From a virus (Duplodnaviria > Heunggongvirae > Uroviricota > Caudoviricetes): DNA of 11,936 nucleotides. Every line of letters begins with the position of its first letter. Within the stretch, counting starts at the first letter, position 1. Both the position numbers and the translations under genes were made by a program. The notes under the pieces are model-generated. The model was not told the DNA's origin and made no database searches. It was given only the letters and a program-made list of their open reading frames with translations. Shown piece by piece: positions 1,032 through 10,354 of this stretch. The DNA lies in the IMG/VR virus record IMGVR_UViG_2681813004_000015, positions 1-11,936 of that record; one strand, 5' to 3'.

Positions 1032-1514
1032 ATGTCAGGACCCCCGAAAACCCCGCCACGCCTGCATTTGATACGAGGCAACCCCTCAAAGCGCCCCGTT
1101 AAAGACCCCAAAAAAACCGCTAAAAAGGATGAAAAAGGTCTTCCTAAAATTCCGCAGCATTTAGGGGCACAGGGGAAGTACTGGTTCAGGCGAATGGCGG
1201 AAGAGCTGAATGCGGAAGGGATCATTTCTCAGCTTGATGCGCGTGCGCTCGAGTTACTGGTGGAAGCCTACACCGAATATCGGCATCACTGCGAAACACT
1301 GGATGTTGAGGGGTATACCTATCGCACGGAAACGCAGAGTGGTGATGTACTGATTAAGGCGCACCCCGCGGCGGCAATGAAAGCGGATGCCTGGAAGCGG
1401 ATCCGGGCGATGCTTGCAGAGTTTGGTATGTCACCGGCAAGCCGGGCGAAAGTAAATACCACCGGACCGGATGATGTTGATCCGCTGGCGGAGCTTTTAA
1501 AAGCGAGAGACTGA
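1032..1514 (+). CDS. terS: terminase small subunit (P27-family-like)
   Basis: 160-aa product with basic N-terminus and the conserved middle region of P27-type small terminases. Stop overlaps the terL start (TGATG, 1512-1516), indicating translational coupling. Confidence 0.8.
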   Translation: MSGPPKTPPRLHLIRGNPSKRPVKDPKKTAKKDEKGLPKIPQHLGAQGKYWFRRMAEELNAEGIISQLDARALELLVEAYTEYRHHCETLDVEGYTYRTETQSGDVLIKAHPAAAMKADAWKRIRAMLAEFGMSPASRAKVNTTGPDDVDPLAELLKARD

Positions 1515-2707
1515 TGGCAAAAGTGGCTGACGGGATCCGCTACGCCGAACGTGTTGTTGCAGGAGAAATTGTCGCTGGCGAATTTGTCCGTCTGGCCTGC
1601 CAGCGTTTTCTTGATGATCTGAAGTACGGCGAAGAGCGGGGGATTTATTTCAGTGAACCCCGTGCGCAGCACATCCTGAATTTCTACAAATTTGTGCCCC
1701 ATGTAAAAGGGGCGCTGGCAGGTCAGCCCATTGAGTTGATGGACTGGCATGTTTTTATCCTCATAAATATTTTTGGTTTTGTCATTCCGCTGGTGAATGA
1801 AGAGACCGGGGAAGTTGTCATGCGCAGCGATGGCAGCGGACGCCCGGTGATGGTGCGCCGGTTCCGGACGGCGTACAACGAAGTCGCCCGTAAAAACGCA
1901 AAATCAACCCTGTCATCGGGTATCGGTCTTTATATGACGGGGGCAGATGGTGAAGGCGGTGCTGAGGTGTATTCAGCCGCAACCACGCGTGACCAGGCCA
2001 GAATCGTGTTTGAAGACGCCAAAAATATGGTCAGAAAAGCCCGGTCGACACTCGGGCGGTTGTTTGATTTCAACAAGCTGGCGATTTACCAGGAGCAGAG
2101 CGCATCAAAATTTGAACCGCTTTCCTCGGATGCAAACAACCTGGACGGTCTGAACATCCACTGCGCCATTATTGATGAGCTGCATGCACATAAAACCCGC
2201 GACGTGTGGGACGTTCTGGAAACGGCAACCGGTGCCCGTCTGCAGTCCCTGTTATTTGGTATCACCACGGCGGGCTTTAACAAGGAAGGAATTTGTTACG
2301 AGCAACGCGATTACGCCATCAAGGTATTGCGAGGCTATAACAGTGACGTGGAGGGCGCGGTAAAAGACGACTCCTACTTTGCGATTATTTACACGCTCGA
2401 TGAGGGAGATGATCCGTTTGATGAAACGGTCTGGCAGAAAGCGAATCCGGGCCTGGGCATCTGTAAACGCTGGGATGATCTGCGTCGTCTGGCGAAAAAA
2501 GCGAAGGAACAGGTTTCAGCGCGGGTGAATTTTTTTACCAAGAAAGTAACATCACGCCGTAACAACAGTGCGACCTGTCCTGATTTTTTTAGTAACCAAA
2601 TGAAAGAAAAAGATTTTTTCTTGTTCGTCGTTTTTGTTTTTTCTGGAAGGTTCTGGCTGTTTTCATCATTTGTGTATTGCACTGTGTATTGCAAAAACGG
2701 GTTATAA
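1514..2707 (+). pseudogene. terL: terminase large subunit, 3'-truncated: ATPase domain only, terminase-like to about nt 2545
   Basis: N-terminal ~345 aa read as an HK97-family TerL ATPase domain. After ...ARVNFFTKK the frame runs through T-rich low-complexity codons (FFLFVVFVF...) into the int upstream region. No nuclease domain is present. Confidence 0.8.
2671..2693. repeat. two direct copies of TGTGTATTGCA separated by 1 nt, 20 bp upstream of int
   Basis: Exact 11-mer at 2671-2681 and 2683-2693. Lies in the AT-rich segment between the terL break and int, next to a short palindrome GAAAAAGATTTTTC at ~2607-2620. Candidate integrase arm-type or regulatory sites. Confidence 0.4.
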
Positions 2708-2712
2708 ATCAC

Positions 2713-3921
2713 ATGGCGCTAAACAAACTGAGCGATAAAAAACTTCGTTCCCTGCTTGGGCGCAGGAGTGAGAGGCAGGAAACCATCGCTGATGGTAACG
2801 GGCTTTCGGTACGGGTCAGTAAATACGGATGTGTTAGTTTTGTTTTCTTTTACAGACTGGCGGGAAGGGGAACCGCGCCCATCTGGCTGACACTTGGAAA
2901 ATATCCTGATCTGAGTCTCAAATCAGCGAGAGAGATGCGCGATCAGTGTCGAACCTGGCTTGCGGAGGGCAGAGATCCACGGATTCAGATAAAAATTGAA
3001 CGGGAAGCCACTTTGCAACCTGTTACCGTTCGTGAGGCACTTGAATACTGGCTTGATAATTATGCAATGGATAAGCGTAGGGGAGCAGAACATATCAGGC
3101 AGTGCTTTGGTAAACATATTTATCCGGTGATTGGTCATGTACCACTTAGTGATTGCTCTATATCTATGTGGATCAAGTGTTTTGACAAAATAAAAAAAGT
3201 AGCACCTGTACAGGCCGGAGCTTTGTTGCGTATATCAAAACAGGCGCTTAAATTTTGTAGGGTAAGAAAATACGCGATTAGTCATGAAATTGATGATCTT
3301 GAGGTCTGTGATGTGGGAAAAAAGTCTGCGCGAAGAAGCAGGGTTTTAACAGATGATGAAATCAGAGATTTATGGCGAAGTATTAATACTGATTATGACA
3401 ATCACGAATTATCATATGAAAACCGAATTATTTTACGTTTCCTGGTAGTTTTTGGTTGTCGACTGTCAGAAGTATTACTGTCGTCCTGGGTAGAGTGGGA
3501 TTTTGATAAGAAATTATGGCGCGTTCCCGCTGATCATAGCAAAAATGGCAGGGAAATAATCAGACCGATTCCTGATGGCATGTTTAACTGGTTAGTTACG
3601 TTAAAAAAAATAACAGGTAACAAAGAAAATGTGATTGGGTTTGATATGCGTCAGTGTACGGCAAGCGTAACTATCGGTAAGACATGGAAAAGGATGAAAC
3701 ACTCGGAAAAATGGACGGCGCATGATATGCGAAGAGTGTTTGCCACAAAGCTAAGTGATCATGGTTTTGAACATAATGTGGTTGAACAGTTGCTTGGGCA
3801 CACATTAGGCGGTGTTGCCGGGGTTTATAACAGAAGTCAGTATATGGACAGAAAAAAAGAAGCTATGAACTGGTGGTACGACTATCTGAATAAGCTAATT
3901 AGTGGTGACGGTAATGATTGA
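2713..3921 (+). CDS. int: tyrosine integrase, P4-integrase family
   Basis: N-terminal arm-binding domain pattern (GLSVRVSKYG...FVFFYRL...LTLGKYPDLSLKSAREMR) and C-terminal catalytic residues (R...HDMRR...LLGH...Y). ATG at 2713 (MALNKLSD) preferred over the upstream ATG at 2677. Confidence 0.92.
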   Translation: MALNKLSDKKLRSLLGRRSERQETIADGNGLSVRVSKYGCVSFVFFYRLAGRGTAPIWLTLGKYPDLSLKSAREMRDQCRTWLAEGRDPRIQIKIEREATLQPVTVREALEYWLDNYAMDKRRGAEHIRQCFGKHIYPVIGHVPLSDCSISMWIKCFDKIKKVAPVQAGALLRISKQALKFCRVRKYAISHEIDDLEVCDVGKKSARRSRVLTDDEIRDLWRSINTDYDNHELSYENRIILRFLVVFGCRLSEVLLSSWVEWDFDKKLWRVPADHSKNGREIIRPIPDGMFNWLVTLKKITGNKENVIGFDMRQCTASVTIGKTWKRMKHSEKWTAHDMRRVFATKLSDHGFEHNVVEQLLGHTLGGVAGVYNRSQYMDRKKEAMNWWYDYLNKLISGDGND

Positions 3922-4534: not shown

Positions 4535-5128
4535 ATGAATAAAAATATTGCCGCGACGGGCAAGGGTGACGCACGTCATATGAAAAAATTCTGTGATATT
4601 CGTGATCTGGTCGTTCTGCGCTTTGATAGTGTGAACGTTCGCGTGGTGTATCTGAACGGCGATCCGTGGTTTGTTGGCGCTGATGTGTGTGCGGCGCTGG
4701 AAATTAGCAACGTTACCGATGCTGTTTCAGTTCTGGATAGCGATGAGGTAATGACCCTAGCTTTAACCGAGGGTCATTCAGGTAAGCGTGGTGGTGCCAG
4801 AAGTTGGAATGTTGTATCAGAATCAGGTTTTTACAAGTTGATCGCCAGAAGTCGCAAAGCTGTTAATCCTGGCACGTTCGCCCATCGTTTCAGTAATTGG
4901 GTATTCAGAAATGTGATACCGGGTATCAGAAAAACGGGGGGTTATGGTATCCCGTGGGGCGCATTACAGGATTTTTCCCGCCGCAAAGAGCAATACCAGA
5001 TAAGTGCCAGCGAGAAGGGGAGGGAGCTACAGGCATGTAAGCGCAAAAAGCGTGAGCTGGAGGAAGAAGAAAAAAGGCTGATACGTGAATACCAGCCTGA
5101 GTTTTACTTTGGTGAGCGTATTCAGTAA
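4535..5128 (+). CDS. Bro-N domain protein (antirepressor-like) with C-terminal charged coiled-coil tail
   Basis: N-terminal region matches the Bro-N pattern (VRVVYLNGDPWFVGADVCAALEISNVTDAV...SGFYKLIARSRKAVNPGTFAHRFSNWVFRNVIPGIRKTGGY). GAGG RBS 9 nt upstream of ATG 4535. C-terminus is K/E-rich. Confidence 0.82.
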   Translation: MNKNIAATGKGDARHMKKFCDIRDLVVLRFDSVNVRVVYLNGDPWFVGADVCAALEISNVTDAVSVLDSDEVMTLALTEGHSGKRGGARSWNVVSESGFYKLIARSRKAVNPGTFAHRFSNWVFRNVIPGIRKTGGYGIPWGALQDFSRRKEQYQISASEKGRELQACKRKKRELEEEEKRLIREYQPEFYFGERIQ

Positions 5129-5282
5129 CCACACGCGGTGTTGATTATACGGTGCATCGTGTTGACCGGGAAGCTACCCACCAGCAAGGCAAAATCTTCT
5201 GCTAAAAATGACATATGGCCAGTCGTCCGGAAAGCATGAAATTTTACAAAAATGGAAAATGAAGATTTTTATTGTGCTGGTG

Positions 5283-5318
5283 GGTAAAAACAAAAAGCGC
5301 CCCGTTACCGGAGCGCCC
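5283..5318 (-). terminator. intrinsic terminator on the minus strand
   Basis: Minus-strand hairpin (GCGCUCC / GGGGCGC, loop GGUAAC; plus 5297-5316) followed by UUUUUGUUUUU (plus 5286-5296). Confidence 0.5.
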
Positions 5319-5360
5319 TTGCGAACAATTAACCTACTGCGCAAAAAATGAATCTGTGCG
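5286..5360 (-). ncRNA. candidate small RNA (~75 nt) bounded by promoter-like element and terminator; hypothetical
   Basis: Minus strand has an extended -10 (TGATATAAT, plus 5366-5374) and the terminator at 5283-5318 about 75 nt downstream. No convincing ORF or RBS in between. Purely structural inference. Confidence 0.25.
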
Positions 5361-5365
5361 GGGGG

Positions 5366-5395
5366 ATTATATCAACCGTGGTCGAAATGACCATA
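5366..5395 (-). promoter_or_regulatory. sigma70-like promoter with extended -10 on the minus strand
   Basis: Minus strand reads ...TGGTCA-(15/16 nt)-TGATATAAT; perfect TATAAT preceded by TG at the extended -10 position; weak -35. Confidence 0.35.
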
Positions 5396-5410
5396 GTTGC
5401 AGGATAACAG

Positions 5411-5442
5411 GCAAAACAAAGGCCACCCGCTACGGTGGCCCC
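5411..5442 (-). terminator. intrinsic terminator downstream of the minus-strand repressor gene
   Basis: Perfect 7-bp stem GGCCACC / GGTGGCC (5421-5427 / 5434-5440) with 6-nt loop; on the minus strand followed by UUUGUUUUG. Confidence 0.55.
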
Positions 5443-5542
5443 TCGACACAAGCACACGTTATCCCCAACGCATGAGCATAACCAACAATGCCACATTTAC
5501 GGCTGGTGGGCAATGTGATCAGTGTGCTGGCTTGCTGGTGGG

Positions 5543-5848
5543 TTATTCCTGCTCTTTGGCCTTGCGCCGCTGGAGTTCTTCACGCGCGACGGCAACAAGT
5601 TGCCCGATCTCCTCGGCAGCTTTGACTCCGATTTTTTCCACCTGAGCCAGTGCATCAAGTGAAGAAACTAGGGGATTTTCTCCGCTTCCTTCTGCCTGGC
5701 GGCGGGCGATCTCTCCGCGCATGGCGGTTACTATGAATCCGGCGTTGCTTTCGCCGTCCAATTTTACGGATTCCATGCCCTCCATAACATCGTGGGGAAC
5801 TCGGACGGTGGTCAATTGTGATTTAGCGTTTTTGTTGGTAGTCGCCAT
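5543..5848 (-). CDS. putative ribbon-helix-helix (Arc/Mnt/CopG-like) transcriptional repressor
   Basis: 101-aa ORF with GGAG RBS 8 nt upstream of ATG (5848). Segment RVPHDVMEGMESVKLDGESNAGFIVTAMRGEI fits the RHH beta-strand/helix pattern of Arc/Mnt. Transcribed divergently from the replication operon across an operator-bearing promoter. Confidence 0.6.
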   Translation of the reverse strand: MATTNKNAKSQLTTVRVPHDVMEGMESVKLDGESNAGFIVTAMRGEIARRQAEGSGENPLVSSLDALAQVEKIGVKAAEEIGQLVAVAREELQRRKAKEQE

Positions 5849-5868
5849 AACTGAAACTCCTCAAATTT

Positions 5869-5948
5869 GGTGTGTTTCAGTATACACAAAAAAGAAATAC
5901 AAAAAAGGCTTGACGTGTGTTTCACTCCTAAATAACATGAAACACACC
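5869..5948 (+). promoter_or_regulatory. promoter for the rightward operon overlapped by operator repeats (GTGTGTTTCA motif)
   Basis: -35 TTGACG (5910-5915), 17-bp spacer, -10 TAACAT (5933-5938). Motif GGTGTGTTTCA at 5869-5879, GTGTGTTTCA at 5915-5924 and its inverted copy TGAAACACACC at 5938-5948; the latter two form a palindrome bracketing the -10. Confidence 0.5.
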
Positions 5949-6044
5949 AAAGGTTTTATTGAAATACAAACGACGAAACCCCGCACTGTTGGAGCAGTAA
6001 CGGGGCTTCTAACCACCAACGATAGCAAGAGTATCGAGGTAGCT

Positions 6045-6248
6045 ATGAGAAATCATACCACACACCCGCAAGGGCGGGACTCGCACAACCTGAATAAATA
6101 CATCTGGCGTTTTATCGCCCTGAGCACGGCACAACCGCGCGTGATTACCATTGAGGCCACCAGCGAACAGGAAGCACGCCAGCAATCTCCTGATGGCTGT
6201 GTGATGGTATTCGCCTCCCGTATTCGTCAGGAGGTGCACCATGATTAA
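6045..6248 (+). CDS. hypothetical small protein (67 aa), first gene of the rightward operon
   Basis: ATG 6045 preceded by GAGGTAG RBS; the longer track ORF from 5721 overlaps the repressor gene and promoter. Stop overlaps the next start. Confidence 0.5.
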   Translation: MRNHTTHPQGRDSHNLNKYIWRFIALSTAQPRVITIEATSEQEARQQSPDGCVMVFASRIRQEVHHD

Positions 6249-10057: not shown

Positions 10058-10072
10058 GCAGTGAGGTACAGC

Positions 10073-10354
10073 ATGATTAAAGACAGCAAAGCGGAAGAAC
10101 TGGAGGCTAAAGGGCTGTACCGGAGAGCGGCGGCACGTTGGGCTGATGTTATGTGGCTGGTGAGCACTGACAAGGAGCGCGAACAAGTGGCAAAGCGTCG
10201 CGCGGAATGTATCCGTAAGGCAGCGCGCCAACCAGTCATACCGGATAATTTCGGAATACTGAAAGAGGCCATAAACCGCACACATACCGGGATGGGCTTA
10301 CAGAAACCTGGCGGTGAGATGTTCAGGAACTACCCGAAAAAAAGGGATAATTGA
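10073..10354 (+). CDS. perC: PerC-family transcriptional regulator (Pch-like)
   Basis: N-terminus MIKDSKAEELEAKGLYRRAAARWADVM... matches the PerC/Pch signature. GAGG RBS 6 nt upstream of ATG 10073; the track start at 10061 is GTG. Confidence 0.75.
   Translation: MIKDSKAEELEAKGLYRRAAARWADVMWLVSTDKEREQVAKRRAECIRKAARQPVIPDNFGILKEAINRTHTGMGLQKPGGEMFRNYPKKRDN

Follow-up and report, generated by a model that had tools for sequence, protein, structure and literature searches.

Does the minus strand between the Bro-N gene and the next, leftward gene carry a separate gene for a small RNA, and if so, what would such an RNA do in the element that encodes it? The region in question occupies positions 5283–5395 of the DNA analysed here (11,936 nucleotides, referred to as the window). 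A promoter scan identified a predicted sigma-70 promoter on the minus strand at 5393..5366, consisting of TGGTCA (5393..5388), a 16-nt spacer and TATAAT, the latter preceded by TG to form the extended –10 element TGATATAAT (5374..5366). The site matches the consensus at 10/12 positions in addition to the extended –10, in agreement with the original prediction, which had placed an extended –10 on this strand between the two genes. Within 4900–6200, two promoter-like sites were found where 1.6 were expected from shuffles.

Placed 7 nt after the –10, transcription is predicted to start near G5359 and to end in a U-run, giving an sRNA of ~72 nt (~5359 to ~5288/5286, minus strand). Three parts can be distinguished in it: a variable 5′ module, CGCACAGAUUCAUUUUUUGCGCAG (5359..5337), which forms a weak hairpin in the window variant; a conserved core, UAGGUUAAUUGUUC (5336..5323), predicted to be unpaired in the window and in most classes of the RNA and hence a candidate region for pairing or chaperone binding; and an intrinsic terminator (5320..5286). 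The terminator hairpin (5320..5293) has 12 pairs, seven of them G-C, a GUAA loop and an A/U-extended base; its core stem, GCGCUCCG/CGGGGCGC, found by both the terminator scan and the fold, pairs 5316..5309 with 5304..5297, and the U-run UUUUUGUUUUU follows at 5296..5286. The predicted fold of the 78-nt RNA has an energy of –24.9 kcal/mol (z = –3.06), equalled by 0/200 shuffles. The locus thus has its own predicted promoter upstream of a short non-coding unit, whose 3′ end is formed by a predicted Rho-independent, U-tailed terminator. The hairpin and U-run had been predicted at about 75 nt after the –10; both are there, but the hairpin begins ~45 nt past the –10, and the figure of 75 fits the length of the whole predicted transcript rather than this spacing. 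A second minus-strand terminator (5443..5418), ~100 nt past the stop of the leftward gene and just upstream of the sRNA promoter, separates that gene from the promoter, as had also been predicted. The leftward gene itself, which the original prediction called a repressor gene, encodes a YlcI/YnfO-family protein; the repressor role had been read from its position only.

A single promoter or terminator match could be due to chance; the pattern of conservation could not. Of 5,426 complete E. coli genomes, 459 contain the intergenic region, and with a 131-nt query the block 5285–5380 recurred in 443/5,426 (about 8%), with up to six copies in one genome. Most matches span query positions 16/20–111, corresponding to window 5285/5289–5380, that is, exactly from the U-run to the –10. 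In 12 aligned loci the block is kept and the flanking sequences differ on both sides. A pattern scan of IMG/VR yielded at least 119 loci with 134 instances (62 unique); the collection pattern fixed GTTC, so that this part of the core conservation is an ascertainment effect. The 134 instances sort into seven 5′ modules of mutually unrelated sequence, and across these seven modules a –10 hexamer matching TATAAT at five or more of six positions lies in register in 133/134 instances (TATAAT, TATCAT, TAAAAT, TAGAAT or TACAAT, 39–51 nt upstream of the anchor). We estimate that a 15-nt window would contain such a hexamer by chance with a probability of about 0.05 per module; since seven independent modules all carry it, a fortuitous promoter is very unlikely.

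These data bear on the simplest alternative, namely that no functional RNA exists, that the hairpin is a shared bidirectional terminator of the alpA and ylcI operons, and that the promoter-like element gives a by-product at most. The hairpin does lie 8–17 nt past the stop of alpA or an accessory gene in more than half of the loci, the terminator is the most conserved part of the block, and the Chi sites and mosaicism described below mark the region as a recombination junction. A shared terminator, however, would not call for the in-register –10 in seven unrelated modules, nor for a conserved block that runs ~45 nt beyond the hairpin to the –10, and the leftward operon of class-A islands already possesses its own terminator at 5443..5418. 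We regard this alternative as unlikely.

Conservation of the terminator as a structure is seen in two fully paired stem types, GCGCUCCG/CGGGGCGC and GCGGCUCC/GGGGCCGC, and in compensatory stem changes (C-G to A-U in locus L007; G-C to A-U in L050 and L071). In the model-fitted alignment A2 two pairs are changed on both sides, and 0/500 shuffles reached the observed covariation score. The MAFFT and covariance-model alignments set the two terminator types out of register, so that pair counts in A2 understate the pairing; pairing in the terminator was therefore judged from the folds of individual sequences. The same fold plan is predicted in all classes, with a 5′ hairpin of changing sequence, then the core, which contains AGGUUAAUUGUUC and is unpaired, and lastly the terminator. 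The 5′ modules of other islands are unrelated to that of the window, several forming hairpins of 7–8 bp, and about ten core variants occur (UUAAUUG, UUAUCUG, CUAUUCG, UAAUUCG, GCGACUUG and others). The sRNA is a mosaic that draws, in many combinations, on seven 5′ modules, some ten cores, two types of terminator and five or more downstream flanks (L005–L152). Through this reassortment of 5′ modules, terminator types and flanks, the 3′ module stays one unit.

A second conserved segment adjoins the sRNA gene on the same strand (5396–5523); it follows the YlcI-like gene and has the terminator at 5443..5418 as its end. Most class-A islands possess this segment. L003 and the class-B islands lack it, and in these the sRNA promoter comes directly after the leftward operon. 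Beyond its terminator, no structure signal was detected in this segment (5408–5515, z = –0.04).

A covariance model of the sRNA 3′ module (R1), which scores the window at 84.4 bits, was used to follow the RNA among related islands. It found the RNA in 15/25 islands whose DUF4222 protein is 85–100% identical to that of the window and in 0/54 islands whose DUF4222 protein is only 53–58% identical; as the latter have no detectable homologue, the RNA is not essential to the satellite plan. The RNA lies downstream of 21 of 80 YlcI homologues; many of the remaining 59 loci are on contigs of tens of kilobases and so are probably prophages. Among 50,697 phage records there was no match to the RNA, the only match there being the Bro-N gene. 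A divergent homologue (L071) sits between alpA and DUF4222/DUF927, the same position as in the E. coli islands, and because its genome gave no megablast match to any E. coli genome, the sRNA family reaches beyond E. coli. Taken together, the promoter, terminator, fold and conservation pattern make it very probable that the window contains a genuine, hitherto unannotated small-RNA gene with a product of ~72 nt, and we consider it likely, judging from the sequence comparisons, that a discrete RNA is made from this minus-strand locus. The small-RNA reading of the original prediction is in this respect upheld by the comparative data.

Could the conserved unit be, or encode, a protein instead? Four ORFs overlap the sRNA gene: 5208–5351 (+), 5272–5475 (+), 5174–5344 (–) and 5329–5496 (–). 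The original prediction had listed the first as the only one, with ~49 codons; it has 47. None of the four matched an NCBIfam or PHROGs family, their start regions fall in flanks that are not conserved, and there is no conserved coding potential in the unit. A small protein, or a type I toxin-antitoxin pair in which ORF 5208–5351 (internal start, MKIFIVLVGKNKK...) would be the toxin and the RNA its antitoxin, might be suggested by the hydrophobic start of this short plus-strand ORF, which overlaps the RNA, and by the plus-strand pseudogenes or hypothetical proteins that RefSeq places here in several genomes. The hydrophobic stretch, however, measures only ~9 residues, the candidate has no family match, and the flank in which it starts is only one among five or more alternatives; most homologous loci lack this start, and the ORF is tied to one flank type; the ‘icd-like’ pseudogenes, for their part, lack an Icd-like domain. 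A toxin or small protein at this locus is highly improbable.

In many genomes RefSeq/PGAP draws plus-strand pseudogenes named ‘icd-like protein’ or ‘hypothetical protein’ over the sRNA gene (L001 7144–7490, L003 4003–4182, L004 3993–4226, and L007–L009). No family match, to Icd-like domains or otherwise, was found for the translations, and the calls probably represent systematic mis-annotation of a non-coding gene.

We next consider the element that carries the RNA. The gene order in the window is Rz lysis protein, HNH, terS, terL ORF, tyrosine integrase, two AlpA-type regulators, Bro-N, the sRNA region, the leftward YlcI-like gene (5848..5543), and then, rightward, Icd-like, DUF4222, DUF927 primase, SSB and PerC. 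Pfam recognised Phage_integrase, two Phage_AlpA domains and DUF927, and an integrase, an AlpA-type regulator and a primase-replicase thus stand in one orientation, as in the satellite family definitions used for PICI and cfPICI assignment (PMC10085698). By these published definitions the element is the common left half of PICI/cfPICI satellites and not P4-type. The window ends before the point at which a cfPICI capsid/terminase module (own capsid, protease, portal, adaptors, terS/terL) would stand; genes for a major capsid protein and a prohead protease follow PerC in two near-identical RefSeq loci (L001 and L002), and the syntenic Sp7 of O157 Sakai has a full capsid, portal and terminase set. 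None of the P4 hijacking genes psu, delta, sid and epsilon was found among the window proteins or annotated neighbours.

Several further features of the element were observed. The terL ORF stops 68 of 286 positions into the nuclease domain and is directly followed by the integrase gene (the pair at window 1514–2707 / 2677–3921); the same shortened terL is annotated by RefSeq in L001 and L002, and a different shortened terminase family occurs in L003. The satellite appears to have inserted in, or recombined with, a prophage terminase gene. A PerC-family regulator gene (10061–10354, Pfam E = 3e-35) occupies the position of pchE in Sakai Sp7; a PICI-encoded PerC-type protein has been reported to repress LEE expression (PMC11773190). 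The operator-like repeat GTGTGTTTCA occurs at 5870–5879 and 5915–5924 and, inverted, at 5938–5947 (region 5866–5951), overlapping the promoters from which the YlcI-like gene and the icd-like operon (TTGACG-17-TAACAT, 5910–5938) are divergently transcribed. This repeat region is probably the transcriptional switch of the island; other islands have different repeats at its position.

Four exact Chi sites (GCTGGTGG) are located within 370 bp around the sRNA gene, at 5177–5185 (–), 5276–5283, 5502–5509 and 5534–5541 (+), and CCCACCAGC with at most one mismatch has 16 matches in the window versus 2.6 expected. In a set of 126 related, non-redundant loci, the alpA sense strand bears about 196 Chi sites between –500 and +100 nt of the sRNA, and the Chi sites of the opposite strand lie just past the sRNA 3′ end and across the replication module. 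The cluster could serve in RecBCD protection of the packaged or replicating satellite, or could be a recombination hotspot that explains the mosaic RNA.

P4 and P1 use C4/CI-type immunity RNAs, and the original prediction had invoked the RNA-based immunity of P4-family satellites as its rationale. An RNA of this type would block the icd-led replication operon by pairing with its leader. An Icd-like gene indeed heads the rightward operon here, and the core differs between island subtypes, as immunity determinants do. Yet the covariance model for C4/CI (RF01695) gave no match to the RNA at the gathering threshold or at E ≤ 10, and the sRNA is not in the leader of the operon it would control: it is encoded on the other strand, at a distance of ~600 nt from the leader of icd, and has a promoter and a terminator of its own. 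Pairing with the icd initiation region was no better than that of shuffled RNAs (z = +1.36; 94% of shuffled RNAs paired at least as well). P4 hallmarks are absent from the window; the P4 rationale is not supported, and an immunity RNA that acts on the icd leader is very improbable.

What the sRNA does share with the 5′ part of the icd-like mRNA is sequence in the same sense. Identities between sRNA positions 5299–5323 and mRNA positions 5997–6006 and 6067–6076 (CGCAAGGGCG, GTAACGGGGC) are same-sense rather than antisense, which again speaks against immunity by pairing. Such same-sense 10- to 15-mers appear as inverted repeats in the DNA of the window and of L146, L093 and L069, and class-B RNAs have a 15-mer in common with icd of a second type. 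The association of RNA classes with icd types, however, is not consistent, and matches in direct orientation are equally frequent. We treat these identities as chance or as mosaic recombination; a decoy role is conceivable.

The leader of the icd-like gene (5975–6020) is itself of note as a structure, with the hairpin GAAACCCCGCACUGUUGGAGCAGUAACGGGGCUUC followed by CUUCUAACCA. In L146, L058 and L045 the leader hairpin is kept with different stem sequences, and the motif is kept as well. The leader may be a structured RNA and could be the real counterpart of C4/CI; the Rfam C4 model did not match it.

Position relative to the alpA operon is the constant feature of the sRNA gene. In 11/11 annotated E. 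coli loci a rightward int-alpA-(Bro-N/AntA/Rha) operon meets the leftward sRNA gene, behind which stands a leftward YlcI-like, HicB or hypothetical gene, and this order is constant at no fewer than four integration sites (roxA/pepT, tRNA-Pro, ilvL and prophage terL). Over 99 non-redundant loci, a median of 17 nt separates the convergent ORF stop from the sRNA 3′ end, with fewer than 50 nt in 52 of them; in some loci the operon stop is far away (151 nt in the window, ~370 nt in L071). No plus-strand terminator was predicted after Bro-N by the terminator scan, and read on the plus strand the sRNA hairpin is followed by only 2–3 U, so that termination of rightward transcripts there should be leaky. 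Because the alpA operon itself lacks a good terminator, its transcripts must either stop within the sRNA gene or continue beyond it; in both cases they would be complementary to the RNA and would meet a strong promoter head-on. The cycle of Gram-negative PICIs has AlpA as its master activator (PMC11773190). The constant position, the close operon stop, the missing alpA-operon terminator and the role of AlpA lead us to favour pairing with the alpA operon: the sRNA may be a base-pairing regulator that overlaps the 3′ end of the alpA-operon mRNA and acts through this overlap in cis, a reading that we put first with slightly less than even confidence.

We infer expression, chaperone dependence and every regulatory effect in this scheme from the signals, the conservation and the geometry given above. 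An extended –10 needs little help from a –35, and the RNA would therefore probably be constitutive in the integrated island. Transcription from this promoter would stop at the strong intrinsic terminator, and the product, in which the unpaired core with AGGUUAAUUGUUC stands between the variable 5′ hairpin and the U-tailed terminator, would have the usual build of a chaperone-dependent base-pairing sRNA. Its first pairing partner would be the 3′ end, or the read-through portion, of the alpA-operon mRNA. Through pairing and head-on transcription, fewer transcripts might continue into the leftward ylcI gene and into the replication module, and the same pairing or collision might damp expression of the protein that activates the satellite cycle, AlpA. 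The unpaired core would probably serve also for chaperone binding or for trans targets in the host or helper phage.

A purely cis role nevertheless leaves some observations unexplained. It gives no reason for the conservation of the core sequence, part of which comes from the search pattern, or for the retention of an intact 3′ module amid reassortment; the operon stop is distant in the window and L071, and the 5′ hairpin is weak in the window variant. Alternatively, the RNA may be purely trans-acting: an Hfq- or ProQ-dependent sRNA directed at host or helper mRNAs, or a sponge for a host sRNA, its overlap with alpA being incidental. The sRNA-like architecture, the conserved unpaired core and the persistence of the 3′ module as one unit are all compatible with a conserved 3′ scaffold that carries exchangeable 5′ seed modules, as in AgvB/AsxR, and prophage sRNAs with conserved 3′ and variable 5′ parts provide a precedent (PMC4104026). 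Such a trans role would be a strong rival to the cis overlap or an additional function beside it. Against a trans role, several 5′ modules are locked in hairpins, and the very tight and constant convergence on alpA stays unexplained. We take an exclusively trans-acting RNA, built as a scaffold with swappable seeds, to be possible, though less likely than action on the alpA operon.

Searches for targets bear on this choice. An exact 11-mer search inside the islands returned no target; one 11-mer recurred, but it belongs to an unrelated coding sequence and is no more than would be expected by chance. Duplex energies against 14 island translation-initiation regions, with shuffled controls, likewise yielded no target above the controls, so that the complementarity to island transcripts that the original prediction had put forward as a check did not materialise. 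With no island-internal target found, host or phage targets are left, a point in favour of the trans-acting reading.

Nor did the RNA coincide with any described one. At gathering thresholds Rfam 15 had no match in the whole window, and at E ≤ 10 over 5100–6100 the only match over the RNA was sau-6072, weak and terminator-like. The AgvB and AsxR models (RF02702/RF02703) did not match it, the published Northern probe sequences for PasA-D are absent from it, Esr41 is located in SpLE1, and EcOnc33, an RNA of ~71 nt, maps to the Sp6 moron region. The block is absent from Sakai Sp7, the syntenic cfPICI and the relative studied most closely, and for this reason the EHEC Hfq-crosslinking and CLASH data sets cannot cover the RNA; the strains or loci behind published EHEC and EPEC data likewise lack it. 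A candidate in E2348/69 PP10 and the CFT073 locus syntenic to clone D i14 proved unrelated or to lack the island. A full-text literature search with stretches of the RNA sequence returned nothing relevant, and the PICI literature searched makes no mention of a small RNA. We conclude that the sRNA family is new, being absent from Rfam and from the PICI literature searched, and of a known kind.

Enterobacteria commonly carry PICI and cfPICI satellites, which mobilise genes for virulence and defence, and the control of these satellites is currently described in protein terms only, with AlpA induced by the helper phage. Conserved, apparently constitutive and set against the alpA operon, the RNA would add a testable RNA layer that might set the threshold at which the satellite is induced, insulate its replication module, or act in cross-talk with host or helper transcripts. 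A bolder version would combine both modes of action: a PICI/cfPICI riboregulator that sets the induction threshold at the 3′ end of the alpA mRNA and in addition reprograms host or helper transcripts through swapped 5′ seeds, the seed modules being exchanged between islands by recombination at the local Chi cluster. We offer this version as speculative; were it true, it would constitute an RNA layer of satellite–helper conflict not described for PICIs. The finding would gain weight from a link to AlpA control or to manipulation of the helper phage, and it would be ordinary if the RNA were a mere terminator by-product. Recognition of the sRNA gene would correct the annotation of several hundred genomes.

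Among known systems, the closest in architecture are the anti-sRNAs AgvB and AsxR (EcOnc01–03) of EHEC lambdoid prophages, likewise short, independently transcribed, carried on a mobile element and convergent at the end of an operon. In these a conserved 3′ part of ~42 nt is joined to variable 5′ ends, and the window sRNA likewise has a conserved 3′ part with the terminator, variable 5′ ends and many reassorting variants, a likeness of architecture only (PMC4104026). The window family is longer (~72–85 nt versus 51–60 nt), and its site between the alpA operon and the ylcI-like gene differs from the moron site downstream of PR′ that AgvB and AsxR occupy in lambdoid prophages. For the window sRNA, Hfq binding and a sponge function are hypothetical. 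PasA-D and Esr41, accessory-genome sRNAs of pathogenic E. coli, have a patchy distribution with copy-number and sequence variants (bioRxiv 10.64898/2026.05.13.724894). The window sRNA shares with them the patchy occurrence among strains, the variation in copy number and the sequence variants, but they sit in lambdoid prophages or SpLE1 and it sits in a PICI satellite.

The immunity RNAs P4 CI and P1/P7 C4 (RF01695) are, like the window sRNA, small satellite or phage RNAs tied to an operon whose first gene is of the icd type. Processing of the leader of their target operon yields C4 and CI, which pair with sites in this same leader; the window sRNA, in contrast, is predicted to have a promoter and a terminator to itself, on the other strand, and shows neither a model match nor leader complementarity. 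SviR, the sRNA of the PLE satellite of Vibrio cholerae, base-pairs with transcripts of both the satellite and its helper phage, its targets being experimental. Both RNAs are satellite-encoded, but the satellite families and hosts are unrelated and the two share no sequence relation. Finally, convergent gene pairs may share a bidirectional intrinsic terminator, and the arrangement described here resembles such pairs in that the hairpin lies a few nucleotides past the opposing operon’s stop and could end both transcripts, giving them complementary 3′ ends. Unlike in convergent mRNA pairs, the partner that meets the alpA operon would be a dedicated small RNA.
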